64,000 bases of DNA from Thermoplasmata archaeon (GTDB lineage: Archaea; Thermoplasmatota; Thermoplasmata; RBG-16-68-12; JAJISG01). Every line of letters begins with the position of its first letter. The stretch's first letter is position 1. Where the stretch lies: NCBI GenBank assembly GCA_046759185.1, contig JBHIBO010000003.1, forward strand, positions 18,865 to 82,864. Direction: 5' to 3'. The notes under the pieces were generated by a model. The model was not told where the DNA came from, did no database searches, and saw only the letters and a list, made by a program, of their open reading frames with translations. Both the position numbers and the translations under genes were made by a program. Shown here in pieces: positions 1-35,669 of this stretch.

Positions 1-937
1 CGACACGCACGATGCGGCCGGTAATGGCACAGACATCGCCCGTCGCTTCGGCCACCGGGAGGGCGTATCCCAGGTTCACACCGACCTCCGGAATGAGTTC
101 GGGGTCGAGAAACGTGAGAAGGTCCTCCGCCGCGTCGCGGACGGCTTTCCAGACCTCCCAGCGATCGTTCGTATAGGCCGCGTTGATGACGGGGAGCCCT
201 TTCCCGACAGCGTAGGAGGTGGCGAAGCCAGCGGCAACCCGCTTTCGGGCGGTCTGGACACTCTCCGTAAGGCTCCGTCCCAAGGCTAGGTGCCCCGCGA
301 TCGTGGAAGCGTACACGCATCCGCTGCCGTGAAGCTCCCCCGGGTACCGGTGACCCGGGAAGGAGTGAAACTCCTCCCCATCAAACAGGATGTCCACGAG
401 CTCACCCTCCAGGTGGCCCCCCTTTACCAAGACAGCTTGGGGTCCGAGGGCGTGGAGGGCCCGAGCGGCCTCCCGCATTCCCTTCACGTCCCCGATGGTC
501 TTGCCTGTCAAGGCCTCGGCTTCGTGGAGGTTGGGGGTCAAGAGCGTGGCCTCGGGTAAGAGATGTTCCCGAAGGGCCTTCGTGAAACCCGAGGTGTGAA
601 GGGGCGAGCCAGCTGTCGCCACCATGACCGGGTCCACGACCAGGGGGCGGTCCAGGTGTGCAAGCTCCTCGGCGACGGCCTGGACGATGTCCTTGGAGTA
701 TAGCATCCCCGTCTTGGCCGCGTCGATCTCGATGTCGTCCCGGATGGCCTGAATCTGCGCGCGGACCATCTCGACGGGCATCGGCTCGGTGGCTACCACG
801 CCCATCGTGTTCTGGGCCGTCACGGCCGTAATGGCGGTGGCGCCGTGGACGCCGACAGCGGCAAGGGCTTTGAGATCCGCCTGGATGCCTGCCCCACCCC
901 CCGAATCACTGCCAGCGACCACAAGCACGGTGCGCAC
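1..937 (-). CDS. thiD: hydroxymethylpyrimidine/phosphomethylpyrimidine kinase ThiD (C-terminal part runs off the window start)
   Basis: Minus-strand translation from GTG at 937 gives VRTVLVVAGSDSGGGAGIQADLKALAAVGVHGATAITAVTAQNT...AKTGMLYS, the ThiD/PdxK ribokinase-fold signature. The frame stays open to position 1. It is absent from the ORF track only because it is edge-truncated. Confidence 0.8.
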   Translation of the reverse strand, partial: MRTVLVVAGSDSGGGAGIQADLKALAAVGVHGATAITAVTAQNTMGVVATEPMPVEMVRAQIQAIRDDIEIDAAKTGMLYSKDIVQAVAEELAHLDRPLVVDPVMVATAGSPLHTSGFTKALREHLLPEATLLTPNLHEAEALTGKTIGDVKGMREAARALHALGPQAVLVKGGHLEGELVDILFDGEEFHSFPGHRYPGELHGSGCVYASTIAGHLALGRSLTESVQTARKRVAAGFATSYAVGKGLPVINAAYTNDRWEVWKAVRDAAEDLLTFLDPELIPEVGVNLGYALPVAEATGDVCAITGRIVRV

Positions 938-5637: not shown

Positions 5638-5682
5638 CGCGTCGCGTGGGCGCCTTGGATGCCTGCCAGCGGAGGAATACGC

Positions 5683-8658
5683 CTACCGGGTGATACGCTC
5701 TCGCCCCCGCCCCCGCCCCCGTAGCCTTCGCCGCAGGAAGAGGGCCACCGGGATCCCCACGATCACCGCGATGATGGAGCCGATCAGGAGAGGCTGCTTC
5801 CAAGCCGCCTCCCGAATGTCCACCTGACGCTCCACGGAGTTCCGGGGCCCAATGAAGAGGTCCGGTTCCTCCGGGTCTGTCACGTTGGCCCGCAACGTGT
5901 AATTGCCTAGAGGGCCGGTGATCCAGGTGAACTCAACGACCTTCGTCTCCCCGGCATTCAACGTGTTGTTCGTGGGGTCACCATTGACGTCCTTAAAGGC
6001 CGGACTGATGGAGACCGGATCGCCAGGAGACTGGCCGAACTGGAAGGCGAAGAACGTCACCTGGACGTTATTGGCGCGCGCTCGGTCAGGCTTGTTGGTC
6101 ACGTTGAACGTAATGAAGAGGCTCACAGACCCGAAGAGCGTCGACTCCTCCGGGCTCTCGGGATCGATCTGCATGACGTTGGGCTCAATCTCGAGGTCCG
6201 GTCGGGTCTCCGGGTCGACGCCAACTACGATACTCCGGGTAGCATTACCCTCGTTCCCCGCCTGGTCTGTCACGGTTAACACAACATCGAAGTTGCCGTT
6301 CTCGGTGTACGCATGGGTGACGTTCACCCCGGTCTCTGTGGTATCGTCTCCGAAGTCCCATTCGAAGGTCATGTTCTGGACGCTGTCCAAGTTGTCCGTC
6401 GTGTCCGACCCGTCGAAGAAGTAGGTGACCTTCTCCACGAGACTCGCGACCTCTCGGAAGTCCTCGTCCAGGATGCGGAAGGCCACCTCGGGGGGTGATG
6501 TGTCCTCCACGACCGCCGTCAGGGTGGCGTTGAGGCTCTCCTGGCCCGCCTGGTCCACGGCCGTCAGGTTGACGGTGAAGGTTCCCGGCGCATCGAAGGT
6601 CCAGTCCACGCTCTGACCGGCGGCATCCACCACGCCGTCTCCGTCGAAGTCCCATCGGTACGCGCTGACGACGCCCTCCATCTGATCGTGGATGCGATCG
6701 GTGGAGTTGCCCGCGAAGAACTCGACGACTTGACCTTCCTTGACACTGATGGTCGTGTTGTTGGCATCGAGTCCGAACCCGGTGACGTTGTTTTCGAGGA
6801 ACGCGATGGGGAGGATGCCGTCGACGTGCAAGGTGAAGTCCCGGAAGGTCACATTCTTGCCCACTTCGACAATCGTGAGATTCCCACTGTAGTTGCCCAT
6901 GACCGCGAAGGTCACGTTGGGTCGGATGCCGAAGGCGGTCTTGAGCTGAGGTGTCGAGATATTCTCGAAGGTCCACGTGAAGTTTGAGTCGAGGTTGACG
7001 CGGCCGTTAGGACTGTTTGGGTCGGTGGACTCCTCCGCGCTGAAGGTCATGTTCTCGTCCGTCGGGATGATGGCGGTGTAGTTGTCGACGCTGGCATTCG
7101 TCTCCGTGAAGCGGTCGGGAGGCGCGACGACGAGGACACGAGCCGTCCCTGCGATGGACTTGGCCACGTCCATATCCACCCGGAAGGTCCCTGGGGCGAC
7201 GAGGGGGTCGATGACGATGAGGACGTAGCTCTGGATGTCGACGGACCCTGTGATGGTTTCGGTTTCTCGCTCGTAACTTGGAACGACCTGGATGGCGTAG
7301 GTCGTGTTGACCCGCACCACGCCCTCCGTGTCGTGGGGGGCCGTGATGTTGACGAAGTACATCTGCTCGTCCGCAGGGATCGACGGGTCGATGGCTGTGT
7401 AGTTGGCGAGGCTCGCGATGAGGACGGGGCCGGCCGTCAGGTTGAAGCTGGCGAAGGTGACGTTGTAGTCCGTCACCGACGCGTTGAGGTCGGAACGGTA
7501 GGACTCGCCGTTCGTTGAAAAGAAGCCGACTGTGTCCACCTGTTTCGGGCCCGCTTCGACCAGGAAGGAGCGGAAGGCCTCCCGCTCGGTTGCGTCCAGG
7601 ATTCCGTTCCCATCCCCGAGGGTCATGTCAATCTGCAGGCGGAGGTTCCGGACCGACGCGAAGGGAAGGCCCGGGAAGGTGCTGTCGTCATTGAAGGAGA
7701 GGTTTCGCCACAGGTTGAGCCGATTCCAGTCCCCTTCGGCATAGCGGATCTGCGTGTCGACGCGCTCATCGGGCGACACCTCGAGGACCCGATCGATCCG
7801 GTCGTCCACGCTGACGGTGATCGTGGTGATGTTGGCCGCCTTGCCGTCCGCATCCACGATCAGGATGAACGTCCCCGCGTAGGCGAAGAAGGTGTAGGAG
7901 GTGCCCGTGACGTTGGCCACGAGGAGCCGCCTCGCCGGTGGCGTGCCCCCATCGGTGTTGTAGAGGAAGGCCACGAGCCCGGCTGAGACGAAGGTGCCAT
8001 CGGGCTCTTGGGCGATGCCCACGAGCTTGACCCCGGCGGCCAAGTCCACGGTGCGGGTGGAGTTCATCGTCACGGTCACGTTCTCCACCGCCTTGGCGAA
8101 GGTGTCCGCCTCCACGCGGACCTCGAAGTCTCCGGCCCACACGGTGAAATTCGCATCGCCGGCGGCATCCGTGATGTTCGTTCCCAGGACCTGTCCGGGC
8201 GTCACGTTGAAGAGTTCCACCTGCGCGCCCTGGACGGGGTCGGTGGCGGGATCCCGAACGTGGACCGTCAGGGTCAACGTTGCGGGGGGCATGGCCGCCA
8301 TCTCGATGTTCTTGACGAGGTTCTGTGTGTTGTCGAAACGGAAGACCTCCGTCTCGTTGTCGAAGAAGCCTCCGGCCGTCTTCACGACGATCTTATAGAA
8401 CCCTGGGGTTGGCGTGAACGAAAAGAACCCATCCGGGCCCGTCACAACGCCCACGCTGCCCTTCTGGCCGTGGGCATCGAACAGGGTGACCGCGACAGAC
8501 TCGAGGAGTTCGGTGGGATTACCCGCTTCGGTAACTACACCCTGGACCTGTCGCTGTTGGCCCGCGGACAGGTCCGCTGTGAGGAGTCCAAGCCCCCCGA
8601 GGAGCAGGACGAAGAGAAGAAGAATCGTCGCTGCCCTGTGTCTCCGGTTTGTGTCCAT
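5683..8658 (-). CDS. cell-surface (S-layer-like) glycoprotein with PKD domains, a C-terminal TM anchor and an Arg-rich tail
   Basis: Signal peptide MDTNRRHRAATILLLFVLLLGG. The N-terminus resembles a carboxypeptidase-regulatory-like domain. At least three PKD-like repeats are present (YRWDFDGDG...TFTVNLTAVDQAGQ; FEWDFGDDT...FDVVLTVTDQAGNEG). Dozens of N-x-S/T sequons are present. The C-terminus is IIAVIVGIPVALFLRRRLRGRGRGRERITR. GGAGG lies 7 nt before the ATG at 8658, and the upstream ATG at 8676 is also possible. Confidence 0.75.
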   Translation of the reverse strand: MDTNRRHRAATILLLFVLLLGGLGLLTADLSAGQQRQVQGVVTEAGNPTELLESVAVTLFDAHGQKGSVGVVTGPDGFFSFTPTPGFYKIVVKTAGGFFDNETEVFRFDNTQNLVKNIEMAAMPPATLTLTVHVRDPATDPVQGAQVELFNVTPGQVLGTNITDAAGDANFTVWAGDFEVRVEADTFAKAVENVTVTMNSTRTVDLAAGVKLVGIAQEPDGTFVSAGLVAFLYNTDGGTPPARRLLVANVTGTSYTFFAYAGTFILIVDADGKAANITTITVSVDDRIDRVLEVSPDERVDTQIRYAEGDWNRLNLWRNLSFNDDSTFPGLPFASVRNLRLQIDMTLGDGNGILDATEREAFRSFLVEAGPKQVDTVGFFSTNGESYRSDLNASVTDYNVTFASFNLTAGPVLIASLANYTAIDPSIPADEQMYFVNITAPHDTEGVVRVNTTYAIQVVPSYERETETITGSVDIQSYVLIVIDPLVAPGTFRVDMDVAKSIAGTARVLVVAPPDRFTETNASVDNYTAIIPTDENMTFSAEESTDPNSPNGRVNLDSNFTWTFENISTPQLKTAFGIRPNVTFAVMGNYSGNLTIVEVGKNVTFRDFTLHVDGILPIAFLENNVTGFGLDANNTTISVKEGQVVEFFAGNSTDRIHDQMEGVVSAYRWDFDGDGVVDAAGQSVDWTFDAPGTFTVNLTAVDQAGQESLNATLTAVVEDTSPPEVAFRILDEDFREVASLVEKVTYFFDGSDTTDNLDSVQNMTFEWDFGDDTTETGVNVTHAYTENGNFDVVLTVTDQAGNEGNATRSIVVGVDPETRPDLEIEPNVMQIDPESPEESTLFGSVSLFITFNVTNKPDRARANNVQVTFFAFQFGQSPGDPVSISPAFKDVNGDPTNNTLNAGETKVVEFTWITGPLGNYTLRANVTDPEEPDLFIGPRNSVERQVDIREAAWKQPLLIGSIIAVIVGIPVALFLRRRLRGRGRGRERITR

Positions 8659-8696
8659 CCGTTTGCCTCCGTGCACCCTGCATAGTGCCCACTTTG

Positions 8697-8704
8697 TTTA
8701 GATA
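8697..8704 (-). promoter_or_regulatory. putative TATA box (TATCTAAA on the minus strand) for the surface glycoprotein gene
   Basis: It lies 39-46 nt upstream of the ATG at 8658, the same spacing seen at the two coxMSL promoters. An inverted repeat CCAGCC-TG-GGCTGG at 8706-8719 sits just upstream, and a second TATATAAT is at 8742-8749. Confidence 0.35.
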
Positions 8705-8844
8705 GCCCAGCCTGGGCTGGCATCCGCCTAGCCACCGCGTCTATATAATGCTGGCGGGTGACGCATCCGAGGCCGCGACGTCTGGACGACGACGCAAGGA
8801 AGACGTTCCCGCTGAGAACAAAAACGTAGAGCCGTGTCCGATCA

Positions 8845-9201
8845 CTAAGGCGCGACGCGGGCCCAGATCTCCTCCGGAAGCGTCTCGTAGACCTTCTCCT
8901 CCGGCCGCTCCTCCCGCCGTCGGCGGGCGCGGTCGATGGCGAGATCGTCCAGCTCCCAGTAGAAGGTGCGCCAGGACCGCCCCGTGGGGAGAATCACGGT
9001 CTCCCAGTATGTGTTGAGGAGGCCGGCGTCATGGAGGTCGTAGAAGACCTTGCGATCTTCCTGCTGAAGGGCGTTGTCGATGATGACGGAGTTGAAGCCG
9101 AAGTAGTTCAGGACCCGGAGGGCGGTGTCGCTCGCCTCTTCCGGTGAGATGTCGAGCGTTTTCTCCAGGGCTTCCTGGAGCTCTTCAGGTCGGACAACCA
9201 T
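8845..9201 (-). CDS. hypothetical protein (118 aa)
   Basis: Protein-like ORF with no low-complexity shadow pattern (MVVRPEELQEALEKTLDISPEE...FYWELDDLAIDRARRRREERPEEKVYETLPEEIWARVAP). No family recognised. Confidence 0.5.
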   Translation of the reverse strand: MVVRPEELQEALEKTLDISPEEASDTALRVLNYFGFNSVIIDNALQQEDRKVFYDLHDAGLLNTYWETVILPTGRSWRTFYWELDDLAIDRARRRREERPEEKVYETLPEEIWARVAP

Positions 9202-9356
9202 CCTTACCCACGTGCCCCCCGCTAGTGGTTAATCTGTGTTCGCTACTATAAGTATGTTTCCCCGAACCGTTACCAGCCTCCATCTGGTCGTGCGAAGGGC
9301 TTAACCGGGGAGCCACATGGGAACGTGGACGAGGTCTCCGGCGAGGTGAGGCGAGG

Positions 9357-11681
9357 GTGGCGGAACGGGACACAACGGCCAAGCGATATGTCGGATCCCG
9401 GATCCCTCGCCTGGAAGACCGTCGTTTCGTGACGGGTCGGGGCGAGTTCGTCACGGACCTCTCTCTGCCTGAGATGGTCCACGCAGCCTTCGTTCGAAGC
9501 CCGTACGCCCATGCCAAGATTCTCGGGATCGACCTGGAAGCCGCGAGGACCGCCCAGGGGGTCTTAGGAGCCTGGAGTGGAAGGGACCTCGAGGGCGCGC
9601 TGGGCCCCCTGCCCACGGAGGTCGGTATGGAGGAGGCAGGCCTCAAGAAACCACCCTACCCCGCCGTGGCCGTGGACCGTGTCCGATATGGGGGGGAGGC
9701 CGTGGCGGTCGTCGTCGCCTCCGATCCGTACGTCCTGCAGGACGTCCTGGAACTCGTGGACGTCCGCTACGAGGCCTTGCCGGTTGTCGTGAACCAGGAG
9801 GAGGCGTTGGGGGAGGGCGCCCCACAACTCCACGAAGAGGCTCCCCGTAACCTGGCCTTCCGTTGGCATCTCGAGGGAGGAGACGTGGAAGGTGCCTTTC
9901 AGGAAGCCGACGTCGTAGTCGAACGGCGGATCGTGAACCAGCGTCTCCAGCCGGCCGCCATCGAGCCGCGTGCAGCGGTGGCCCGCTGGGATTCCCAGAC
10001 GGACCGCCTCACGCTGTGGGTAACCTCTCAGAACCCGAAGACCCACCGCGAGATCCTGGCTCGCGTCTTGGGGATGCCGGAGGCGGATCTTCGGGTCATC
10101 GCCCCGGACGTTGGTGGTGGCTTCGGAAGCAAGATCGCTGTCTACCCGGGGGAAGCCGTGGTGTGCCACCTCGCGCGTCACCTTGGACGACCCGTGAAGT
10201 GGGTCGAGAACCGCGGCGAGAACTTCCAGGTGACGTCTCACGGCCGCGATCACATTCAGGACGTCCGACTCGCTGCCAAGGGCGACGGGACCATCCTCGG
10301 TATCGATGTGACGTCCCTGGCCAACCTGGGAGCCTATCCCTCCACTGCAGGGCCGGGCGTTCCGGCCAGTCCCTTCGGGAAGATGCTCAGCGGGGCCTAC
10401 CTCATGCGGGGGGTCCGCGTGGAGGTCCACGGCGTTTTCACGAACACGACCCCCACGGACGCCTACCGGGGGGCAGGGCGACCCGAAGCGGCCTACGCCG
10501 TGGAACGCATGGTGGACATCCTCGCCCGGCGGTTGGAGATGGATCCGGCAGAGATCCGGAGGAGGAACTTCATTCCGCCCGACGCCTTCCCCTACCAGGT
10601 CCCCACGGGACTCAAATACGATAGCGGGAACTACGAAAGGGCGCTGCAGAAGGCCCTGGAGGTCGCGGACTATCTCGGTCTCCGGGAAGAACAGGCGCGC
10701 GCTCGGAAGGAAGGGCGGCTCCTCGGCATCGGCATCTCCACCTACGTGGAGGTTTGCGGATTCGGTTCACCGGGGGGGTGTCGCCTGCAGGTCGATCCAG
10801 CCGGGAAGGTGGTCGTGTACACGGGGGCGCATCCCCAGGGCCAGGGGCAGGAGACGAGCCTCGCCCAGATCGTGGCCGACGCCCTGACGATTCCCGTGGA
10901 GGCCGTCGAGGTGCGCCACGGGGATACGGCCACGACCCCGTGGGGCATTGGTACCTTCGGGAGTCGCGGACTGGCCGTGGAGGGGGGCGCCTCCCTCCTG
11001 GCGGGTCGCGAGATGGCGGATGCCGCCCGGAGGCGGGCTGCGGGGTTGTTGGAGGCTCGGCCCGAGGACGTCGTTCTTGCGGAAGGAAAGGCCTTCGTCC
11101 CCGATGCTCCGGAGCGGGCGTTCAGCCTCTGGGACCTCGCCCAGTCACCTCAAGAGACCCAACCGGACGAGGAAGCGCCGTCCTGGGAGGTCACCGCCTT
11201 CTACGAGACCGAGGACTACGTGTTCCCCTTCGGGGCTCACGTGTGTGTGGTCGAGGTCGAGCCGGCCACCGGCGAGGTTCAGGTCCTGCGCTACGTCGCC
11301 GTGGACGATTGTGGGACGGTGATCAGCCCCCAGCTCGTGGAGGGTCAGGTGCACGGTGGGGCGCTCCAAGGCATCGCACAGGCCCTCTGGGAGGAGGCCC
11401 GCTACGACGAGACCGGGAACCTGCTCACACTGGGGCTATCCGAGTACGGGGTCCCCACGGCCCTGGAGAGTCCCCGCATCGAAAGCGTCCGCCATGTGAC
11501 GCCCTCGCCGCACAACCTATTGGGGGCCAAGGGGGTGGGTGAGGCCGGGACCATCGGGGCGACGCCGGCCGTGGTGAACGCGGTCGTGGACGCCCTTGCC
11601 CCGTACGGCATCGTGCACTTGGACATGCCCTTGACGCCCGATCGCGTCTGGGCGGCCCTCCGGACGGGAGAGCGAGGCTAG
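9357..11681 (+). CDS. molybdopterin-dependent hydroxylase large subunit, CoxL-like form II (orphan: no adjacent medium/small subunits)
   Basis: 774 aa of the xanthine dehydrogenase/CODH large-subunit family. The active-site loop reads NTTPTDAYRGAGRPEAAY, i.e. the form II AYRGAGR motif rather than the form I AYRCSFR. Confidence 0.85.
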   Translation: MAERDTTAKRYVGSRIPRLEDRRFVTGRGEFVTDLSLPEMVHAAFVRSPYAHAKILGIDLEAARTAQGVLGAWSGRDLEGALGPLPTEVGMEEAGLKKPPYPAVAVDRVRYGGEAVAVVVASDPYVLQDVLELVDVRYEALPVVVNQEEALGEGAPQLHEEAPRNLAFRWHLEGGDVEGAFQEADVVVERRIVNQRLQPAAIEPRAAVARWDSQTDRLTLWVTSQNPKTHREILARVLGMPEADLRVIAPDVGGGFGSKIAVYPGEAVVCHLARHLGRPVKWVENRGENFQVTSHGRDHIQDVRLAAKGDGTILGIDVTSLANLGAYPSTAGPGVPASPFGKMLSGAYLMRGVRVEVHGVFTNTTPTDAYRGAGRPEAAYAVERMVDILARRLEMDPAEIRRRNFIPPDAFPYQVPTGLKYDSGNYERALQKALEVADYLGLREEQARARKEGRLLGIGISTYVEVCGFGSPGGCRLQVDPAGKVVVYTGAHPQGQGQETSLAQIVADALTIPVEAVEVRHGDTATTPWGIGTFGSRGLAVEGGASLLAGREMADAARRRAAGLLEARPEDVVLAEGKAFVPDAPERAFSLWDLAQSPQETQPDEEAPSWEVTAFYETEDYVFPFGAHVCVVEVEPATGEVQVLRYVAVDDCGTVISPQLVEGQVHGGALQGIAQALWEEARYDETGNLLTLGLSEYGVPTALESPRIESVRHVTPSPHNLLGAKGVGEAGTIGATPAVVNAVVDALAPYGIVHLDMPLTPDRVWAALRTGERG

Positions 11682-11687
11682 GCGCAC

Positions 11688-12383
11688 TCACTTAGGTGAT
11701 GTCCGTCCCTCGGACCGCATCCCAGACGCTCCCAAGAGGTCCACGAACTCCGTGAAGTCTCGAGCCTCGAGGTCCGGCTCCAAGTCTAGCGGTTCCATCT
11801 CTCCACCCGCGCGGTTAATCCAGAGGCCCTTGAGGCCGGCAGCCTTGGCGCCCATGATGTCAAAGGCGTTCGAAGAGACCATTCCAATCTCCCCGGGTGG
11901 GAGATTGAGCTGAGACACCGCGAGTTCGTAGACCCTGGGGGAGGGCTTGTACGTCTCCACCTGCTCTGCGCTCAAGACGAGGGAGAATAGACGGGAGATG
12001 CCGCTCCCCTCCAGGAGGGCATGGAGGAGGGCCGTTTCGCCGTTGCTCAGGACGACCAGAGTATAGCTCTCCTTTAGGTTCTCCAGGGCGCCCGCAACGT
12101 CCGGATAAAGGGGGAGCCGGCTCCAGGCCCCGGTCAGGTCTTCCACCTCTTCTGGGCTCAGCCCGACCTCAAGCCAGCTGCTCGCCGTGGAAAGGGCCCG
12201 CTTGGTTACCTCCGAGAAAGGCAGGAACCGGCGCATTAGGGCCACGAGAAACGTGTACTCCAGCTGCTTTCTTCTCCAAAGAGCAAGCAGCTCTTCCCCG
12301 CCCTTGCTTCGTTCTCCCAGCCTCACACGCAAGGCCTCTACGTCGAACAGCGTTCCGAACACGTCGAACGCCAAAGCGCGCAT
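11688..12383 (-). CDS. HAD-superfamily hydrolase, haloacid dehalogenase type II-like
   Basis: 231 aa. Motif I is AFDVFGTLFDV (DxxGTL), and the downstream S/T and K-D motifs are conserved (LSNGE, KPSPRVYE, SSNAFDIMGAKAAG). Confidence 0.8.
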   Translation of the reverse strand: MRALAFDVFGTLFDVEALRVRLGERSKGGEELLALWRRKQLEYTFLVALMRRFLPFSEVTKRALSTASSWLEVGLSPEEVEDLTGAWSRLPLYPDVAGALENLKESYTLVVLSNGETALLHALLEGSGISRLFSLVLSAEQVETYKPSPRVYELAVSQLNLPPGEIGMVSSNAFDIMGAKAAGLKGLWINRAGGEMEPLDLEPDLEARDFTEFVDLLGASGMRSEGRTSPK

Positions 12384-12571
12384 AGAACCATCGTGCTACC
12401 CGTGCGCCCGCCTAAAAGCATTCCCTCCCCCCGGTTCTCGCCCGAGGCGTTGGATGCGTTGGGACCATCAGGCATGAATATGGGGATTCGGGCGCTGCTC
12501 TTCGCAAAGGATGAATAGAATCGGGCCATCCTGCCTTTGAAACGGAGGAGGGAGGAACCAGAGGCGGAGCC

Positions 12572-14518
12572 GTGCCAACCAGCAAGGCGATCGATGTACT
12601 GTTGGAGGAGGGACGTCTGTTCCCTCCGTCTAAGGCGTTCGTGGAGCAGGCCAATGTGAGCGACCCGGCCCTCTATGAGGAAGCCCGCCAGGATTTCGAG
12701 GGATTTTGGGCGCGTAGAGCGGGAGATCTCCACTGGTTTCAGAAGTGGGAGAGAGTCCTCGACGACGACAATCCACCGTTCTTCCAGTGGTTCGTCGGCG
12801 GAAAGCTAAACGCTTCCTACAACTGCCTGGACCGGCATACGGCAGGACCGCGACGAAACAAGGCCGCCCTCATCTGGGAGGGGGAGCCCGGCGAGGTCCG
12901 AGTCTACACCTTTCAGATGCTCCAGGACGAGGTGTGCCGCGTCGCTAACGGCCTAAGGAAGCTGGGGGTACGGAGAGGGGAAGTGGTTACCGTCTACCTC
13001 CCCATGATCCCCGAGCTCCCCGTCGTCATGCTCGCCTGCGCCAGAATCGGGGCGATTCACAGCGTCGTCTTTGCGGGCTTCTCCGCCGAGGCGCTGGCTA
13101 CAAGGATGGAGGATGCCGAGAGCCGCTACCTCGTAACCTGCGACGGGTACTACCGTCGAGGCCATGTCGTCGACCAAGGAGCGAAGGCGGCGGAAGCCCT
13201 GGACGCGCTCCCCTTCGCGGCGAGGAAGGTCGTCTACGTTCGCAGGGTCGGCCGGGATGTCGCCCAGGAGGAGGGGCGAGACCTTTGGTGGGATGAGTTG
13301 TTGCAGGCCTCCTCCCACTGCGAGCCAGAGGCCATGGATGCCGAGGATGTCCTGTTCATCATGTACACCAGTGGGACCACCGGGCGGCCCAAGGGGGTCG
13401 TCCACACCACGGGCGGCTATCTGACCTACGTCGCCGCCACCCACCGCTGGATCTTCGACGTCAAAGAGACGGACCTGTACTGGTGCGCGGCCGACATCGG
13501 CTGGATCACGGGCCATAGCTACATCGTCTACGGCCCGCTGGCGAATGGGACAACGACCTTCCTTTACGAAGGGGCTCCCGACTGGCCGAAGAAGGACCGG
13601 CTATGGCAGATCGTCGAACGGTCCGGGGTCAACATCCTCTACACGGCCCCGACGCTCATCCGGGCGGTCATGAAGTGGGGGGAGGAGTACCCCGCATCGC
13701 GCGACCTCTCTAGCCTTCGCCTCCTGGGAACCGTGGGGGAGCCCATTAATCCCGAGGCGTGGCTCTGGTACTGGAAGCACATCGGGGGGGAGAAGGCGCC
13801 TGTCGTCGACACGTGGTGGCAGACAGAGACCGGGGGCATCCTGATCACTCCCCTTCCGGGCATCACCACTCTGAAGCCAGGCGCCGCAACGTTGCCCTTC
13901 CCCGGGGTCGAGGCCGCCATCCTGGACGAGGGGGGGAACCCCGTGCCCGAGGGCCAAGGAGGTTGGCTCGTGATTACGCGCCCGTGGCCTGGTATGCTCC
14001 GCACCCTCTGGAAGGATCCTGATCGGTACATCGAGACCTACTTCGGGAAGTACGGGTCCAACACCTATGTCGCCTGGGACGCGGCGAAGCGGGATGAGAA
14101 CGGCTACTACATCCTCATGGGACGCCTCGACGACGTCCTCAACGTAGCGGGCCACCGGTTGAGCACGTGGGAGTTAGAGAGCGCCCTGGTGAGCCATCCC
14201 GCTGTGGCCGAGGCGGCCGTTGTGGGCGTCAGCCACCCCGTGAAGGGCGAGGTGCCTTTCGCGTTCGCGATCCTCCGGGCTGGCCGTCAGGCCAGCGACG
14301 AGCTGGAGAAGGAGCTTACGGCGCACGTGGCGGACGCCATCGGCCCCATTGCCAGGCCGGAGCGCATCATCCTCAGCCCCGACTTACCGAAGACACGCAG
14401 CGGCAAGATCATGCGGCGCCTGCTCAAGGACATCGCGGAGGGGAGGCCCTTGGGGGACACGACCACCCTGCGAAACCCCGAGATCTGCGAGGAGCTGAAG
14501 ACCCTCGCCGCCGCCTGA
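12572..14518 (+). CDS. acs: acetyl-CoA synthetase (AMP-forming)
   Basis: 648 aa. The Acs N-terminal region is WFQKWERVL...FQWFVGGKLNASYNCLDRH. The AMP-binding motif is YTSGTTGRPKGVVHTTGGYL. The C-terminus has SGKIMRRLLKDIA. Confidence 0.9.
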   Translation: MPTSKAIDVLLEEGRLFPPSKAFVEQANVSDPALYEEARQDFEGFWARRAGDLHWFQKWERVLDDDNPPFFQWFVGGKLNASYNCLDRHTAGPRRNKAALIWEGEPGEVRVYTFQMLQDEVCRVANGLRKLGVRRGEVVTVYLPMIPELPVVMLACARIGAIHSVVFAGFSAEALATRMEDAESRYLVTCDGYYRRGHVVDQGAKAAEALDALPFAARKVVYVRRVGRDVAQEEGRDLWWDELLQASSHCEPEAMDAEDVLFIMYTSGTTGRPKGVVHTTGGYLTYVAATHRWIFDVKETDLYWCAADIGWITGHSYIVYGPLANGTTTFLYEGAPDWPKKDRLWQIVERSGVNILYTAPTLIRAVMKWGEEYPASRDLSSLRLLGTVGEPINPEAWLWYWKHIGGEKAPVVDTWWQTETGGILITPLPGITTLKPGAATLPFPGVEAAILDEGGNPVPEGQGGWLVITRPWPGMLRTLWKDPDRYIETYFGKYGSNTYVAWDAAKRDENGYYILMGRLDDVLNVAGHRLSTWELESALVSHPAVAEAAVVGVSHPVKGEVPFAFAILRAGRQASDELEKELTAHVADAIGPIARPERIILSPDLPKTRSGKIMRRLLKDIAEGRPLGDTTTLRNPEICEELKTLAAA

Positions 14519-14668
14519 CGCGAGGGACGTCGAGGCGATGCGGCGCGCATGACTCCGAGCTGAGAGTGACATTTTTGATAACCGCTGCCCAACCTATTTG
14601 CTTCGCATAACGCGATCAAGGGGGGACGAAAGGGACGAAGGGATGCATCTCTTTCCATCGGGAGCAGT

Positions 14669-14947
14669 ATGCTCGATTCCCCCGTAACCTGCCTCATCGC
14701 GGACGGCTTCCGCTGCCGAGATTGCGGCCACGAGGACAACGAGAGGGACCCGCGGACGGGGAGGGTAATCGGCCCCATCCATGTGATGAAGTTGCTCACT
14801 TCCGGCTGCGGCTGTCCGGCGCACGCCGATGTCCTGCCGGTGACGGCGGACCTGGAGGTCGTCTCTCCCCGCTTGGATTTGGTCAGCTTGTGCCTGATTT
14901 GCGGCAGGGCCTGCTCCGGCGAGCCCGAATACCAGGTGACCCCATGA
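14669..14947 (+). CDS. small Cys-rich protein (92 aa), possible zinc ribbon
   Basis: CxxC pairs CRDCG and CLICGRAC plus CGC. Its stop overlaps the start of the next membrane-protein ORF as ATGA. Confidence 0.4.
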   Translation: MLDSPVTCLIADGFRCRDCGHEDNERDPRTGRVIGPIHVMKLLTSGCGCPAHADVLPVTADLEVVSPRLDLVSLCLICGRACSGEPEYQVTP

Positions 14948-15344
14948 GTTTCGACGAAGTCTTCGACGTGAGCGACCGGGTGCGAAGGTTCTGGAAAACG
15001 GGCGTCTGGTTCATGATTGCCGCCGCGCTCGGCAGCGCGGGGATGGCGATGTACATGAGGCTTGTGTCGGCTGTCGATCTATGGCTGAAGCTGCTCTTCG
15101 TCCTCGGAAACAGGGGCATCCTAGGCTGGGCGATCTGGAAGATGAACCTATGGAGAAGGACCGACCGATTGAAGGAGGTCGCCGCGGGGGCATCCTGGCC
15201 CTGCAGGCCGTGTTCGGAATCGCCATTGTAACCCTTCTTGCCGGTCAGCCCTCGTGGTTCTCGTTCATGTACCTGGGGGGAACGTTTCTCGTGTTCGCGA
15301 TGACGCTCTCGGATCTATGGCCGTGGCGCAAGCCGAGTGTCTAA
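14944..15344 (+). CDS. predicted 4-TM membrane protein, interrupted by an apparent -1 frameshift in a G5 run (15186-15190)
   Basis: The frame-1 ORF 14944..15231 (MSFDEVFDV...KEVAAG) and the frame-0 ORF ending at 15344 (GGILALQAVFGIAIVTLLAGQPSWFSFMYLGGTFLVFAMTLSDLW) join into a single roughly 133-aa TM protein if one G is added to GCGGGGGC. Confidence 0.45.
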
Positions 15345-15385
15345 GATCTTTGTGACTTGCGTCGGCTCCGACAACCGAAAGGGTT

Positions 15386-15985
15386 TTGGGGGGGTGGTTT
15401 ATAGACCGGCCGGGGGAGTTCAAGGTGGCTGTCGACGTAGTTTTGGCTTTGCAGGCAACTGTCCTCATGTTTTACGGAGTGAATTTCTTCGTCCTGGGGA
15501 TGGTCCTGCTGGGGTACGGGGAATTGAAGGACGCGGGTCCGATCTTCCTTGCCGCTGGGGGGATAAACGGGATCATCGCCCTCGTCCTCTTCAACGAGCA
15601 GTTCGCGGCCGGGTCGGGGACTTTCGTCATCGTCGCTTTCCTCCTGCTCGTCTTTGCGATCACGTGGCTCGCCGCAGGAACCGTCGCGATCATGGGCGCC
15701 GGCGCCAAACCCATTGGCAGCCTGGGCATATTCTTCGGGCTGGCCATGATCCCCTTCGCTGTGTTCCTCGTCCAGGGACAGGACGTGCCCAGCTGGGGAT
15801 GGCTGACGATCAACGTGGTTTCGTGGATTTGGGTGTTCTTTACCCTGCCACTCGCCTTCGTGTTCAACGTAATCAGCGCGAAGGTCGCGGGCTGGAGCTT
15901 CATCATCCAGGCGTTCTACACCCTCTGGATTCCGGCGGCTCTGCTGATGGCGGGCGTCGTCGCCCCCCCTCTGCTAGGGATCTGA
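15386..15985 (+). CDS. polytopic membrane protein (about 6 TM, 199 aa), family unassigned
   Basis: Strongly hydrophobic ORF with GG/AG-rich helices. It sits between the two acs genes. Only a weak resemblance to YaaH/SatP was seen (VAGWSFI vs FAGWIGL), and the NPAPLGL signature is absent. Confidence 0.6.
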   Translation: MGGWFIDRPGEFKVAVDVVLALQATVLMFYGVNFFVLGMVLLGYGELKDAGPIFLAAGGINGIIALVLFNEQFAAGSGTFVIVAFLLLVFAITWLAAGTVAIMGAGAKPIGSLGIFFGLAMIPFAVFLVQGQDVPSWGWLTINVVSWIWVFFTLPLAFVFNVISAKVAGWSFIIQAFYTLWIPAALLMAGVVAPPLLGI

Positions 15986-16220: not shown

Positions 16221-17854
16221 ATGAAGGGTTTGATGATGGATTTTCAGCTGACCCTGCCCCCTCTTCTGAAGCGGGCGGGAACGTACTTCGGCTCGGTTGA
16301 AATCGCCAGCAGGCTGCCCGACAGGTCCTATCACCGGTACACCTACGGGGACTTTCATGACCGGGCCCTTGGATTGGCCGCCGGCCTGACCGAAGCGGGC
16401 TTGAGGCGAGGAGATCGGGTGGGAACCCTGATGTGGAACCACTACGCTCACCTGGAGGCATACTTTGGCATCCCCTCGGCCGGCTTCGTGGTCCACACCC
16501 TCAACCTGCGGCTGCACCCCTCGGAGATCGCCTACATCGTCAACCATGCGGAGGACAGGATCCTCATCATCGACGACGTCCTCCTTCCGTTGTACGACCG
16601 GTTCAAGGATGAGGTCGAGCCGGAAGAGGTCCTCGTGGTCCCCCTGACGGGGAAGCCCGTGCCGGATCGGTACACGAGCTACGAGGCATTCATCAACCGA
16701 GAGGACGGGGAGTTTGTGTCCCCGGAGCTACGAGAGGACGAGGCCGCCGGCATGTGCTACACCTCGGGGACGACCGGGCGGCCGAAGGGGGTACTCTTCT
16801 CCCACCGAGCCATCGTCCTCCACTCCTTCGCCTCTGCCATGGCCGTCACCCTTGGCCTAGGACAAGACGACGTGATCTGCCCGGTGGTCCCCATGTTCCA
16901 CGCCAACGCCTGGGGGATCCCCTTCACTTCGACGATGATCGGGGCCCAACAGGTCTTCCCCGGCCCCCACCTCGATCCCGTTGGCCTGCTGGAACTCCTC
17001 TCCCATGAGCAGGTTACCCTCAGCGCGGGCGTCCCGACGCTGTGGATTGGAATGCTGAACGAGCTGGAGAAGGACGCGAGCCGGTGGGACCTCTCCTCGC
17101 TGCATACGCTCGTGGTGGGAGGCGCCGCGGCGCCCGAGGCCCTCATCCGGGGCTTCGACCGCCACGGTATCACGGTCCTGCACGCGTGGGGCATGACGGA
17201 GATGGCGCCCCTGGGGACGGTCTCGCACCTAAAGAGCTACCTGCGGGACCTGTCCAAGGAGGAGGAATACGGGTACCGAATGAAGCAGGGCCTGCCCGTC
17301 CCCTTCGTGGAGGCGCGCGTCAGGACTGTGGAGGAAGGGAAGGAGGTGCCCTGGGACGGCCAGACCATGGGCGAGCTCCAGGTCAGGGGACCGTGGATTG
17401 CGGAGGCCTACTACCGGAGGCCCGACTTCGCAGACAGCTGGACCGAAGACGGCTGGCTCCGGACGGGGGACGTCGTGACCGTGGACGGGGAGGGTTACGT
17501 CCTGATCACAGACCGGACGAAGGATCTCGTTCGGTCGGGGGGGAGTGGATTGGCTCCGTCGCCCTGGAGAACGCCATGATGGCCCACGCGGCTGTGAGCG
17601 AGGCCGCCGTGGTCGCGATCCCGCACCCCAAGTGGGGAGAGAGACCCTTGGCCGCGGTCGTTCTCAGGGAGGGTCAGAAGGCCGATGCCGATGAGCTTCG
17701 CGAGTTCTTGGCGCCCCGTTTCCCCAAGTGGTGGCTACCCGATGCCATCGTGATTCGGGAGGATATCCCCAAGACGTCCGTAGGCAAGTTCCTAAAGTCG
17801 CAGCTGAGGGAGGAGTACAGGGACTGGAAGTGGGGGGAGGCCGAGGGCGGATGA
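16221..17854 (+). pseudogene. medium/long-chain fatty-acid--CoA ligase (FadD-like) with a -1 frameshift in a G7 run at 17537-17543
   Basis: MKGLMMDFQLTLPPLL... and YTSGTTGRPKGVLFSHRA (AMP-binding). Frame 0 ends at DLVRSGGSGLAPSPWRTP*, while frame 2 continues the canonical SGGEWIGSVALENAMMAHAAVSEAAVV...PKTSVGKFLK to 17854. GAGAGGAG RBS lies before the ATG at 16221. The gene is probably intact in vivo. Confidence 0.8.
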
Positions 17855-21032: not shown

Positions 21033-21071
21033 AGATATTTGCTACACGCCAGCCCTGGGGGAAGGAGCTTG

Positions 21072-21947
21072 ATGCCTGCAAGGTTTGACTACTATGCGCC
21101 TACCTCGCTCAGCGAGGCTGTCGAGCTTTTGGAACGCCACGACGACAAGGCGAGGGTCCTGGCTGGGGGCCAGAGCCTCGTCCCCCTGATGAAGCTCCGG
21201 GTCGGCGAGCCGCTCGGCGTTCTCGTTGATCTCAATCGAATCGAAGACCTGGGATACGTGAAGGAGGAGGATGGTGCCCTCCGCATCGGGGCCCTGGCAC
21301 GCCATCGTGACTTGGAAAACTCGGACATCATCCAAGGTCGTTACCCCCTACTGGCCGACGCCGCGGGGACCATCGGCGACCTCCAGATCCGCAACCTAGG
21401 AACCCCCGCCGGGTCCTTGGCCCATGCCGACCCCGCCTCCGACTGGGGAGCGGCCTTCCTGGCGTTTGAGAGCGAGGTCACCGCCACCTCTGCAAAGGGG
21501 GTTCGGACCATCTCGCTGGATGACTTCTTCGTGGACACCTTCGCCACCGCCTTGGAGCCCGGCGAGGTTCTCACGGAGATTCGGGTTCCCTCTGTAGGGA
21601 ACGGTTCCGGCGGAAGCTATCAGAAGCTCAAGAGGAAGGCGGGGGACTTCGCCACCGTCGGAGTGGCCGCACAGCTGCAGCTCGATGGGGGTGGGACTGT
21701 GAGCCAGGCGAGACTTGCCCTGACGGCGGTGGGAGCGACGCCCTTCCGCGCCCAGGATGGGGAGGACCGCCTGCGGGACGGTCCGGCGGACGAGGCGGCC
21801 GTGGCCGAGGCGGCCGGCCTGGCGGCCCAGGCGGCCGAGCCCACAGACGATCTCCGAGGATCCTCGGAATACAAGCGGGCCATGGTGGAGGTCTTCACCC
21901 GGCGTGCGTTGGAGACCGCGCTGGAAAGGGCGAGAGGAGGATCCTGA
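21072..21947 (+). CDS. Mo-hydroxylase FAD-binding medium subunit (CoxM-like), form-II cluster
   Basis: MPARFDYYAPTSLSEAVELLE...AGGQSLVPLMKLR. This is the FAD-binding PCMH domain. GGAGG RBS lies before the ATG. Confidence 0.85.
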   Translation: MPARFDYYAPTSLSEAVELLERHDDKARVLAGGQSLVPLMKLRVGEPLGVLVDLNRIEDLGYVKEEDGALRIGALARHRDLENSDIIQGRYPLLADAAGTIGDLQIRNLGTPAGSLAHADPASDWGAAFLAFESEVTATSAKGVRTISLDDFFVDTFATALEPGEVLTEIRVPSVGNGSGGSYQKLKRKAGDFATVGVAAQLQLDGGGTVSQARLALTAVGATPFRAQDGEDRLRDGPADEAAVAEAAGLAAQAAEPTDDLRGSSEYKRAMVEVFTRRALETALERARGGS

Positions 21948-21990
21948 TTATGAGCGAAGAGTTTCTTGGCTGGACTGGGAGGGAGAGGTG

Positions 21991-22476
21991 ATGGAGGGAG
22001 AACCGAAGCTGCATCACGTCGCGCTGACCGTAAATGACGAGCGCCGCGAGGGAGACGTCGAGGCCCGTGTCCTACTGGTGGACTTCCTGCGCGACCAGCT
22101 GCGTCTCACGGGCGCCCACGTCGGCTGCGACACAGGCCACTGCGGGGCGTGCACCGTGGTCGTAAACGGTCGCGCGATCAAGGCCTGTTCCATGTTCGCC
22201 GTCCAGGCCGACGGCGCTGAGGTGCTCACCATCGAAGGCCTGGCCTCCGACGGGGAGCTGCATCCGCTTCAGAGGTCCTTCTCGGAGCACCACGGGTTGC
22301 AGTGTGGCTTCTGCACGCCCGGCCTCATCATGACGGCCTACGAACTCTTGGAGCGGAATCCCGATCCCACGGAAGCACAGGTTCGCGAGGGGATATCGGG
22401 CAACATGTGTCGATGCACCGGCTATGTGAACGTCGTGAAGGCCGTCCTTGCGACGGCGGGAGCGAAGGAGGGATAA
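21991..22476 (+). CDS. Mo-hydroxylase [2Fe-2S] small subunit (CoxS-like), form-II cluster
   Basis: Both 2Fe-2S motifs are present: [11 protein letters not shown], and QCGFCTPG...CRCTGY. The ORF was trimmed to ATG at 21991. Confidence 0.85.
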
Positions 22477-22480
22477 GGCG

Positions 22481-24832
22481 ATGGCAGCAGCTGAGAAGTA
22501 CGTGGGAGCGCGTGTCCAGAGAAAAGAGGATGCCCGGTTTGTCACCGGAACGGGCAGCTACGTAGCAGACCTGGCCCTGCCGGGCATGCTCCACGCGGTC
22601 TTCCTGCGAAGCCCCTACGCCCACGCCAAGATCAAGAAGGTCGACGTCGCCGCGGCCCAAAAGCTCCCGGGGGTCGTGGAGGTCTTCACAGGGGAGGACC
22701 TGAAGGACGACATCGGTTCCACCCCCACCGCCTGGGTGATTCCCGATTCGGATTTGAAGACACCACCCTACCAAGCCCTGGCCACGGAACGGGTCCGCTA
22801 CCAGGGCGAAGCCGTGGCCGTCGTGGTGGCAGAGGATCCCGCCATCGGTGCCGATGCCATCGAGCTCATTGACGTAGACTACGAACCCCTTCCGGTGGTC
22901 GTGAACCAGGAGGAGGCCCTCAAGGAGGGAGCGCCCCAGCTCCACGAAGAGGCGCCCGGCAACCAGGCCTTCAAATGGGTCCTGCCGGGCGGGGACGTGG
23001 ACGCGGCCTTCGAGGAGGCCGACGTCGTGGTGGAGCAGCGCCTCGTCAACCAGAGGCTCCAGCCCTCGGCCATGGAGCCGCGAGCCGCCCTGGCCCAGTG
23101 GGACGAGGTGGACGAGAAGCTCACGCTGTGGGTGACCTCGCAGAACCCCCACATTCATCGTCTCATCCTGGCCGCGTTTGTCCTCGGGATTCCCGAGAAC
23201 AAACTTCGAGTCATCGCCCCGGACGTGGGAGGCGGCTTTGGGAGCAAGATCCCGATCTACCCATGGGAAGCCGTCGTATCTCATCTCGCCAGAAAGTTGG
23301 GCCGCCCCGTCAAGTGGGTGGAGAGCCGGACGGAGAATTACCAAGCGACGACTCACGGTCGGGACATGGTCCAGGACGTCGAGATGGCCGCAAAGAAGGA
23401 CGGTACAATCCTCGGCATCAAGATCAAGGCCTTCGCGAATATGGGGGCCTATCTGTCCACGGCCGCGCCCGGAATTCCGACGATTCTCTTCGGGTTCATT
23501 ATCAGCGGTGCCTACACCATGAAGGCCACCCATGCCGAGGTAATCGGTGTGTTCACCAACACGACCCCTACGGATGCCTACCGGGGGGCGGGCCGTCCCG
23601 AGGCCATGTTCGCGGTGGAGCGGATGGTAGACATCCTCGCCCGGAAGCTGGGCATGGACCCCGTGGAGATCCGTCGGAAGAACTTCGTTTCTCCGGACGC
23701 CTTCCCGTACCAGATTCCCACAGGCCTGACTTACGACAGCGGGAATTACCCCGGGACCCTGGCAAAGGCCCTGAAGATCTTGGACTACGACGCATTCCGA
23801 GAGGAGCAGGCGAAGGCGCGCGAGGAGGGCCGTCTCCTTGGCATCGGTTTCTCCACCTACCTGGAGTTGTGCGGCTTGGCCCCCTCTCCGGTTTCCACCG
23901 GCACCGGTTTCCAGGGAGGCCTCTGGGGCAGCTCCGTCTGTCGGATGCTTCCCACGGGCAAGGTCTCCGTATTCACAGGGGCGCACCCCCACGGGCAGGG
24001 AGAGGAGACAACCTTCGCCCAGATCGCCGCGGACGAGCTCGGCGTGCCCGTGGAGGACGTGGAAATCGTCCACGGGGACACGGACATGACCCCCATGGGC
24101 ATGGGGACCTACGGCAGCCGCACGAACCCGGTTGAGGGCGGGTCGGTCGCCCTCTCGGCCCGCAAGGTGGTGGCCAAGGCGAAGAGGATCGCGGCCCACC
24201 TCTTGGAGGCGCGCACCGAAGACATGGCCTTCGAGGGGGGGAAGTTCTTCGTGAAAGGGGCCCCTGACAAGGCCAAGACCATTCAGGAAGTCGCTTTCGC
24301 GGCCTACATGGCTCAGAGCATGCCCGAAGGGGTGGAGCCCATTCTGGAGGCCACCACCTTCTACGATCCCACGAACTTCGTCTATCCCTTTGGTGCCCAC
24401 ATCTGCACGGTGGAGGTGGACTCCGAGACCGGCGAGGTGGAGATCCTACGATACGTGGCCGTGGACGACTGCGGGACGATCATCAACCCCATGATCGTGG
24501 AGGGCCAGGTCCACGGGGGCGTTCTCCAAGGCGTGGCCCAGGCCCTCTGGGAGGAAGCCCGCTACGACGAGGACGGGAACCTGCTGACTGGCAGTTTCAC
24601 GGAATACCTGGTGCCCACGGCGCTGGAGAGTCCGAAGATCGAGACGGACCATACGGTCACGCCGTCCCCGCACAACCCCCTGGGGGCGAAGGGCATCGGC
24701 GAGACGGGAACCATCGCCTCGTCCGAGGCCGTCATCAACGCCATCGTGGACGCCCTGGAGCCTTATGGAGTGACCCACGTAGACATGCCCGCCACCCCCG
24801 AGAAGCTGTGGCGCCTCATCCAAGAAACGTAG
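22481..24832 (+). CDS. Mo-hydroxylase large subunit, CoxL-like form II
   Basis: Trimmed to MAAAEKYVG at 22481. The active-site loop is NTTPTDAYRGAGRPEAMF (form II). Confidence 0.9.
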   Translation: MAAAEKYVGARVQRKEDARFVTGTGSYVADLALPGMLHAVFLRSPYAHAKIKKVDVAAAQKLPGVVEVFTGEDLKDDIGSTPTAWVIPDSDLKTPPYQALATERVRYQGEAVAVVVAEDPAIGADAIELIDVDYEPLPVVVNQEEALKEGAPQLHEEAPGNQAFKWVLPGGDVDAAFEEADVVVEQRLVNQRLQPSAMEPRAALAQWDEVDEKLTLWVTSQNPHIHRLILAAFVLGIPENKLRVIAPDVGGGFGSKIPIYPWEAVVSHLARKLGRPVKWVESRTENYQATTHGRDMVQDVEMAAKKDGTILGIKIKAFANMGAYLSTAAPGIPTILFGFIISGAYTMKATHAEVIGVFTNTTPTDAYRGAGRPEAMFAVERMVDILARKLGMDPVEIRRKNFVSPDAFPYQIPTGLTYDSGNYPGTLAKALKILDYDAFREEQAKAREEGRLLGIGFSTYLELCGLAPSPVSTGTGFQGGLWGSSVCRMLPTGKVSVFTGAHPHGQGEETTFAQIAADELGVPVEDVEIVHGDTDMTPMGMGTYGSRTNPVEGGSVALSARKVVAKAKRIAAHLLEARTEDMAFEGGKFFVKGAPDKAKTIQEVAFAAYMAQSMPEGVEPILEATTFYDPTNFVYPFGAHICTVEVDSETGEVEILRYVAVDDCGTIINPMIVEGQVHGGVLQGVAQALWEEARYDEDGNLLTGSFTEYLVPTALESPKIETDHTVTPSPHNPLGAKGIGETGTIASSEAVINAIVDALEPYGVTHVDMPATPEKLWRLIQET

Positions 24833-24836
24833 TTTC

Positions 24837-27028: not shown

Positions 27029-27074
27029 CTGATGAAAGCCCTTTCGTTTGGAGCGCTGTGGACGACTTCCGTGC

Positions 27075-33335: not shown

Positions 33336-33339
<4 letters not shown>
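32800..33339 (+). CDS. coxS: CO dehydrogenase [2Fe-2S] small subunit
   Basis: [11 protein letters not shown] and QCGFCTPG...CRCTGY motifs. The start may be at 32809 (MAVAERE). It overlaps coxM and coxL. Confidence 0.85.

Positions 33340-35669
<2,330 letters not shown>

Follow-up and report, generated by a model that had tools for sequence, protein, structure and literature searches.

Channels of the AmiS/UreI family (PF02293, the urea/amide channel family of TCDB) allow the facilitated diffusion of a small, planar and uncharged carbonyl compound, and the gradient stays inward as a cytoplasmic enzyme consumes the solute, such as urease for urea and amidase for acetamide. Members of this family include HpUreI, the proton-gated urea channel of Helicobacter pylori (PDB 3UX4 and 6NSJ), and AmiS, which is encoded in amidase operons of the Pseudomonas aeruginosa amiEBCRS type. 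Known acetate carriers comprise ActP, the AceTr/SatP proteins (GPR1/FUN34/YaaH; PDB 5YS3 and 5ZUG) and MctC-type transporters, and the routes of acetate uptake in archaea are poorly mapped. In the acs-yjcH-actP arrangement of Escherichia coli, the membrane protein gene(s) come after acs; ActP belongs to the Na+/solute symporter family, with ~550 aa and many transmembrane (TM) helices, and YjcH is a DUF485 protein. Here, we analyzed a stretch of 64,000 nucleotides from a Thermoplasmata archaeon (GCA_046759185.1, contig JBHIBO010000003.1, positions 18,865 to 82,864; hereafter the window), in which an acetyl-CoA synthetase gene (acs) is followed by three co-oriented open reading frames (ORFs), ORF1 to ORF3. 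A preliminary description of this DNA had proposed that their products, a zinc-ribbon protein, a 4-TM protein and a 6-TM protein, form an acetate uptake system.

The reading that we favor, with a probability of about 0.45 as a whole, is that the core of this locus is a pair composed of Acs and a divergent AmiS/UreI channel (ORF3) which would conduct undissociated acetic acid or a related C1-C3 acid, and that ORF1 and ORF2, located between these two genes, represent an insertion restricted to one lineage, with ORF2 in the process of erosion. ORF3 is a member of the AmiS/UreI family and does not define an undescribed one. It matched PF02293 with an E-value of 3.5e-14 and 53.6 bits (gathering cutoff 25) over positions 3-165 of the 166 in the profile, and the same family was matched by 25/25 homologs recovered. 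NCBI already holds an identical protein under the name 'AmiS/UreI family transporter [Thermoplasmata archaeon]'. The AlphaFold2 model of ORF3, built on a 25-sequence alignment, has six helices and a predicted local distance difference test (pLDDT) score of 88.9. When this model was searched by Foldseek, the best PDB matches were the HpUreI structures 6nsj and 3ux4 (TM-score 0.75-0.77, E 1.8e-5), and SatP/YaaH acetate channels came next (TM-score 0.66-0.69, E about 0.03).

UreI and SatP have one common fold (PMC4602095), which is therefore a fold known to pass acetate, and this explains why the 6-TM protein had been credited with faint YaaH/SatP-like features. That impression holds at the level of the fold only: none of the 25 clade members matched Gpr1_Fun34_YaaH at E<=1, and among the Foldseek matches HpUreI took the first place (TM-score 0.77) and SatP the second. 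ORF3 and SatP/YaaH thus share the same hexameric 6-TM fold class and a proposed role in acetate entry, but their identity is about 16-19%, the NPAPLGL motif is absent from the translated ORF3 sequence, and the conducted species is the anion in SatP but is expected to be neutral in a UreI-type pore. ORF3 (186-199 aa, six helices) had no match to the SSF family, and Pfam gave no signal for an SSS-family ActP or for YjcH/DUF485 at this locus, in agreement with the preliminary description. With both ActP and YjcH families undetectable here, what is shared with acs-yjcH-actP is the logic of the gene order, which is an analogy.

The longest ORF3 frame starts from TTG and covers 15386..15985 (199 aa, six predicted helices). 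The probable start is GTG 15425, which gives a 186-aa protein (15425..15985, plus strand) and is favored because of the ortholog alignment and a conserved GGGGGAG just upstream. The Pfam match and helix 1 of the AlphaFold2 model likewise favor this codon over the NCBI start, ATG 15467 (Met28 of the 199-aa frame, 172 aa), which would cut into TM1.

Together with its homologs in metagenome-assembled genomes (MAGs) of Thermoplasmata, Methanomassiliicoccales and Dehalococcoidia, ORF3 forms a divergent AmiS/UreI clade that seems to be undescribed. ORF3 scored 54 bits against PF02293, in comparison with 144.9 bits for the canonical AmiS found at one Methanomassiliicoccales locus (L003). No match was detected by tblastn between the divergent and canonical paralog types, and hhalign of the clade profile with one canonical AmiS sequence returned a probability of 5.9%, which shows only distance. 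The canonical paralog of L003, which resides in the same MAG as a clade member and resembles it in Pfam family, size and 6-TM layout, retains FSFTYLW and the W-x2-W-x3-W triad, whereas the Acs-linked clade has only one of these three Trp residues. In this MAG, the canonical AmiS and an AmiE/AmiF-like amidase (5881..7436, minus strand) are located back-to-back with Acs and the divergent AmiS (8012..10543, plus strand), implying a genome with two AmiS/UreI paralogs that have different partners.

The similarity to HpUreI includes, besides the PF02293 match and the six-TM fold (TM-score 0.77), a length of ~180 aa, the retention of F84, T87, W149 and the C-terminal WIPA motif, and a gene location adjoining that of a cytoplasmic enzyme that could consume the imported solute. 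On the other hand, identity is ~20%, the loops of the clade are short and lack the long PL1 loop of HpUreI that is implicated in channel closure, and clade genes are never next to urease and have another set of neighbors. The nine constriction residues of HpUreI, as defined in PMC3863980 (McNulty et al.), were mapped by hidden Markov model profile alignment. According to this weak alignment (E 0.015), 5/9 positions are replaced across the clade, and the substitutions are conserved or nearly so over 25 clade sequences. L6, F84 and W149 of the periplasmic constriction (CP) are kept and W146 is replaced by V; V9, which contributes to both constrictions, is F/Y; in the cytoplasmic constriction (CC), L13 is F, Y88 is W, W153 is F and E177 is Q or E. 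In HpUreI, the Y88F mutant is inactive for urea, W153F is less urea-selective and E177Q is tolerated (PMC3863980).

To the protein-level evidence we add the genomic neighborhood of the clade. Scans of genome and metagenome collections with the clade alignment returned 3 and 9 loci, respectively, a sample too small for statistics. The closest relative, the 110-kb Thermoplasmata contig L001, is collinear with the window at ~80% nucleotide identity (4831-14499, 15411-15960, 16227-17848 and 21052-28608) and has the order CoxL, HAD (minus strand), Acs, a 346-bp spacer, AmiS, FadD-like and CoxMSL. In L003, L004 and L005 (Methanomassiliicoccales and relatives), the order is Acs, AmiS and CoxMSL; in L018, Acs and FadD-like are divergent from AmiS, which is followed by CoxMSL; and L021 has CoxL and AmiS. 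The channel gene is immediately 3' of acs in L001 and L003-L007, and form-II CoxMSL is kept 3' of it in L001, L003-L005 and L018. More distant members of the clade show other arrangements, such as AmiS, Acs and AOR in L014 (38-44% identity), AmiS and AOR in L016, and AmiS and AOR in L013 (Dehalococcoidia), the last in the vicinity of genes for ThiF and a molybdate/tungstate-type ABC transporter; in L026, AOR lies <=2 kb from AmiS.

In total, Acs and/or an aldehyde-oxidizing molybdenum/tungsten (Mo/W) enzyme (form-II CoxLMS or AOR) adjoins the channel gene in 12/13 informative non-redundant contexts, in at least three gene orders (Acs->AmiS->CoxMSL, AmiS->Acs->AOR, AmiS->AOR and divergent Acs<->AmiS). 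No urease was present in any clade locus examined, and an amidase was found in 1/13 contexts, that of L003, where it is accompanied by its own canonical AmiS. The link between a membrane channel and acs, as previously suspected, is therefore well reflected in the relatives: the Acs->channel pair is kept in all Thermoplasmata/Methanomassiliicoccales relatives recovered, and distant members adjoin Acs and/or AOR.

Based on these observations and on family precedent, the channel would be a hexameric ring with a narrow aromatic/hydrophobic pore in each protomer, through which the solute may pass passively. Acs, encoded next door, would serve as the consuming enzyme and trap acetic acid as acetyl-CoA, and in AOR-linked loci the solute might be exchanged with an aldehyde/acid couple. 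A short-chain carboxylic acid is favored as the solute because it is the metabolite common to Acs and the aldehyde-oxidizing Mo/W enzymes. Acetic acid is isosteric with acetamide; because of this isostery, and because the same fold conducts acetate in SatP, we favor undissociated acetic acid.

Several points weigh against this assignment. In the literature searched for a link of AmiS/UreI to Acs, acetate, aldehyde enzymes/AOR or archaea, none was found, so that the case for the substrate is built on guilt by association and on isostery. Lipid membranes are already permeable to undissociated acetic acid, which is a minor species at neutral pH, and the need for a channel is thus not obvious. The HpUreI residues were mapped by a weak profile-sequence alignment (E 0.015), relative to which TM5 is shifted by one position in the hhalign alignment to canonical AmiS. 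With regard to context, the amidase operon of L003, being back-to-back with Acs-AmiS, also fits an amide-utilization island; L019 has neither Acs nor AOR; and the Thermoplasmata contexts are related by descent and do not amount to eight independent observations.

The two ORFs located between acs and the channel gene are absent from L001, where acs and AmiS are separated by 346 bp of unrelated spacer, as well as from L003-L005 and L018. The trio next to acs was found in two other genomes, L006 and L007, which are only close relatives (88-94% nucleotide identity over the acs compared, as against ~80% for L001). A BRE/TATA-like (B recognition element/TATA box) element, CCGAAAGG + TTAAATAT, is present 5' of the channel gene in L001, and it is degenerate in the window and in L006 and L007, all of which carry the ORF1-ORF2 insert. 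In L020, ORF1-ORF2 directly follow an HAD gene with no acs between. Neither direct repeats nor a GC anomaly could be detected around ORF1-ORF2 when we looked for them in the window.

ORF1 (14669..14947, plus strand) encodes a Cys-rich protein of 92 aa with Cys at positions 8, 16, 19, 47, 49, 75, 78 and 82, which includes the pairs C16xxC19 and C75xxC78 and the pattern CxxCxHxD..DPxT...CLxC. A word-indexed search identified three close homologs (69-89% identity), all in the order acs-ORF1-...-AmiS or a fragment thereof, and a profile search of 1.84 billion representatives retrieved five cluster representatives, one of them a close homolog and four remote. Ten residues (C16, H21, D23, D27, P28, T30, P36, C75, L76 and C78) do not vary, and 7/8 sequences have C19; in L006 (3686..3964), Ser replaces the second Cys of the first CxxC. 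The L007 copy (654..929) carries compensated -2/-1 indels that leave ~17 codons out of frame, and the ORF is still 91 aa long. The ratio of nonsynonymous to synonymous substitution rates (dN/dS) is 0.30-0.38 for ORF1 in comparison with 0.09 for acs (measured against L006), suggesting that ORF1 is a real gene under loose constraint. No Pfam, NCBIfam or PHROG family was matched by ORF1 above threshold, its sole Pfam match being the sub-threshold Zn_ribbon_TiaS (E 0.079), and the AlphaFold2 model was unusable (pLDDT 44). It may be a small Zn-ribbon-like protein.

One remote homolog of ORF1, P0030 (49% identity), provides a lead on its origin. It is encoded on L030 (1..4396, 54% GC), a contig from the same study that has no channel gene and contains 17 tiny ORFs, of which 15 point in the same direction and many overlap; among their products are a RusA-like resolvase and several Cys-rich mini-proteins. 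This organization is virus- or plasmid-like, and ORF1 might thus derive from a mobile element. Four lineages, represented by the window, L006, L007 and the acs-less L020, share a conserved leader of ~115 bp upstream of ORF1 (14556..14668, plus strand), which may also harbor the promoter. This leader contains a predicted hairpin, GAAAGGGA...TCYCTTTC, just 5' of a GGGAG ribosome-binding site. As a single compensatory pair was found among the four sequences, the hairpin is not evidence for a structured RNA, and Rfam had no match in the window.

The ORF1 stop overlaps the ATG of ORF2 as ATGA (14944-14947). The frame beginning there, ORF2a (14944..15231, plus strand; 95 aa, two weak TM segments), stops at 15231, and the hydrophobic continuation lies in another frame, ORF2b (ATG 15150, 15150..15344, plus strand; 64 aa, two TM segments), which ends at 15344. 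A G5 run (15186-15190) is located within the overlap of the two frames. An identical 95-aa ORF2a product was called in three separate run assemblies (SRR29324601-603), indicating that the frame break is a property of the population and not an accident of assembly. Among 5.8 billion proteins, ORF2a matched only itself (P0026). The fused ORF2 had no Pfam match at E<=1, DUF485 included; when ORF2a and ORF2b were searched separately at E<=10, only Phage_holin_3_6 matched ORF2b, at an insignificant level (E 0.56, 10.7 bits versus a cutoff of 28.4), and PHROG, Pfam and NCBIfam gave nothing significant.

Four peptide segments of ORF2 are recognizable in the window, L006 and L007, but the frames differ. 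Around the central junction, the window lacks 1 nt (mod 3) immediately 5' of the G5 run, and L006/L007 lack 4 nt at a site ~25 nt further upstream, where a TGA results; the ORF2b ATG is kept in L006 and L007. When both stretches are restored, ORF2 becomes one open frame of ~135 aa with four TM segments. L006 and L007 have two further frame breaks, and L007 additionally an in-frame stop. In the proper frames, dN/dS of the segments is 0.36-0.7 (0.4-0.7 for ORF2b) with few sites, so the constraint appears to be weak but not clearly absent. The most economical interpretation is that an ancestral small membrane-protein gene has been disrupted independently in each lineage. An alternative is that ORF2 comprises a pair of small ORFs that overlap, in which case the window would carry a compensated +4/-4 change. 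The frame offset between the halves, identical in the window, L006 and L007, had at first spoken for two ancestral overlapping genes, but realignment of the junction placed the breaks at different sites, and a single gene with later frameshifts accounts for the sequences at least as well. Under either scenario, the channel has no conserved partner in ORF2.

With these data, the three-component system proposed earlier, in which ORF1 (zinc ribbon), ORF2 (4-TM) and the 6-TM protein would act together in acetate uptake analogously to acs-yjcH-actP, is very improbable. The co-orientation of the genes, the ATGA overlap of ORF1 and ORF2, the trio order kept in L006 and L007, the purifying selection on ORF1 and the conserved leader 5' of it would all be expected from such a system. 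It is difficult to reconcile, however, with the lack of the trio in the nearest collinear relative and in four other acs-AmiS loci, the broken frame of ORF2 in every lineage seen and its lack of homologs outside this lineage, the occurrence of ORF1-ORF2 without acs in L020 and of a distant ORF1 homolog on a virus-like contig without a channel gene, and the missing DUF485/YjcH and SSS signals. The zinc-ribbon partner and the 4-TM protein therefore cannot be retained as parts of a conserved system. A channel for some other small neutral species (CO2, NH3 or water, for example) that is handled by the Mo-hydroxylase island, with an incidental adjacency to Acs, is also quite improbable: HpUreI conducts water efficiently (PMC3863980) and the window is rich in CoxLMS genes, a form-I CO dehydrogenase included, but the adjacent CoxL is form II and not the CO-oxidizing form I, and the association with Acs survives rearrangements and persists in loci without CoxLMS.

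Two other solutes deserve more consideration. The channel could be an ordinary one for short-chain amides (acetamide/formamide) or urea; the amide would be hydrolyzed by an amidase whose gene lies elsewhere, and the adjacent Acs would activate the acetate released. Membership of the AmiS/UreI family and the AmiE/AmiF-like amidase back-to-back with Acs-AmiS in L003 agree with this, and Acs would be a logical step after acetamide hydrolysis. We nevertheless regard it as rather unlikely: the amidase of L003 is paired with a canonical AmiS (144.9 bits) that is separate from the Acs-linked paralog, no amidase or urease was found in the 64-kb window or the other 12 contexts, adjacency to AOR is not explained by amides, and the clade has other residues in place of Y88 and W153, two positions critical to the passage of urea through HpUreI. 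A channel for the entry or release of acetaldehyde or another small aldehyde (or alcohol), which a Mo/W enzyme would oxidize to the acid that Acs activates, would account for the AOR genes directly downstream in L013 and L016 and also downstream in L014, as well as for the form-II CoxLMS, most similar to archaeal glyceraldehyde dehydrogenase, downstream in Thermoplasmata loci; acetaldehyde is likewise a small planar carbonyl compound. Yet it is Acs and not the oxidoreductase that is the tightest and most constant neighbor in the Thermoplasmata subclade, small aldehydes and alcohols permeate membranes readily, and form-II CoxL scores below the NCBIfam cutoff, all of which makes an aldehyde channel unlikely. 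The favored reading thus remains an acid channel paired with Acs.

The positions and co-orientation of the ORFs, the ATGA coupling, the G5 run, and the presence of acs upstream and of a FadD-like gene and a second acs downstream were all reproduced from the sequence. The upstream acs (12572..14518, plus strand) encodes an AMP-forming acetyl-CoA synthetase (TIGR02188, 912 bits versus a cutoff of 725) with Pfam domains ACAS_N, AMP-binding and AMP-binding_C. It is preceded by a gene for a type II haloacid dehalogenase (HAD; 11688..12383, minus strand; NCBIfam TIGR01428, 204 bits versus a cutoff of 125). HAD genes adjoin acs or the channel module in L001, L003, L006, L008, L018 and L020, and a connection with C2 acids of the haloacetate or glycolate type is conceivable.

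Downstream of the channel gene, the FadD-like medium/long-chain acyl-CoA synthetase gene (16221..17854, plus strand; Pfam AMP-binding) is interrupted by a -1 frameshift within seven consecutive G residues (G7, 17537-17543). With one G added, the frame is restored to 544 aa and includes the SGGEWIGSVALEN motif; the ortholog in L001 is unbroken (552 aa) and matches subfamily PRK06187. As G/C runs in the window never exceed 7, under-calling of this G7 run is possible. The second acs (acs2; TIGR02188, 772.7 bits, above cutoff), whose ATG 17851 overlaps the FadD stop (ATGA), forms together with an oxidoreductase gene an insertion relative to L001 (17848..21052) with slightly lower GC. The oxidoreductase had been called an alcohol dehydrogenase, but no NCBIfam cutoff was reached and it is better described as a generic member of the medium-chain dehydrogenase/reductase (MDR) family, with best partial matches to PIG3 quinone oxidoreductase, crotonyl-CoA reductase and acryloyl-CoA reductase.

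Also downstream of the channel module is a form-II CoxM/S/L-type molybdenum hydroxylase (21039..24832, plus strand; aldehyde-oxidoreductase-like, with AYRGAGR in the large subunit). The window contains three CoxL paralogs, and the two of form II (AYRGAGR; 9357..11681 and 22448..24832) are on either side of the acs-AmiS module. They scored 721-759 bits against the NCBIfam model of glyceraldehyde dehydrogenase subunit alpha, below its cutoff of 790. This model was the best match for the upstream gene, whereas the downstream gene scored higher with the CO dehydrogenase large-subunit model (833 bits, not reaching the cutoff of 991) than with glyceraldehyde dehydrogenase alpha (759). The third paralog (33336..35669) belongs to form I (AYRCSFR; TIGR02416, 1208 bits) and is a bona fide aerobic CO dehydrogenase. 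Between the CoxL paralogs, genes for CoxE/MoxR-like, MoaA, MOT1-type molybdate transporter, XdhC and CoxG proteins could be assigned by collinearity with the annotated L001 and L004/L005.

What is new here is the divergent AmiS/UreI clade with its new genomic association; the family, the fold and the NCBI annotation were known. The result is partly deflationary, since the three-protein system reduces to one channel of a known family and a decaying lineage-specific insert. In a broader and more tentative view, which we consider possible rather than probable, the clade might represent a third functional class of the UreI/AmiS/SatP fold, namely passive channels for undissociated short-chain carboxylic acids (acetic acid) whose solute would be trapped by Acs or enter the acid/aldehyde couple of AOR. 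Acetate could then reach the cells of some archaea and Dehalococcoidia by a route that has no relationship to ActP and differs from AceTr in sequence, and ORF1 might in addition be virus-derived. The protein is small and the clade-specific pore residues are obvious targets for mutagenesis, which makes the hypothesis directly testable. If it is true, acetic acid would join the substrates of a family regarded as limited to urea and amides, the UreI and SatP branches of one fold would be linked functionally, and the 'AmiS/UreI family transporter' calls in metagenomes, which are now taken as a sign of urea or amide use, would have to be read differently.

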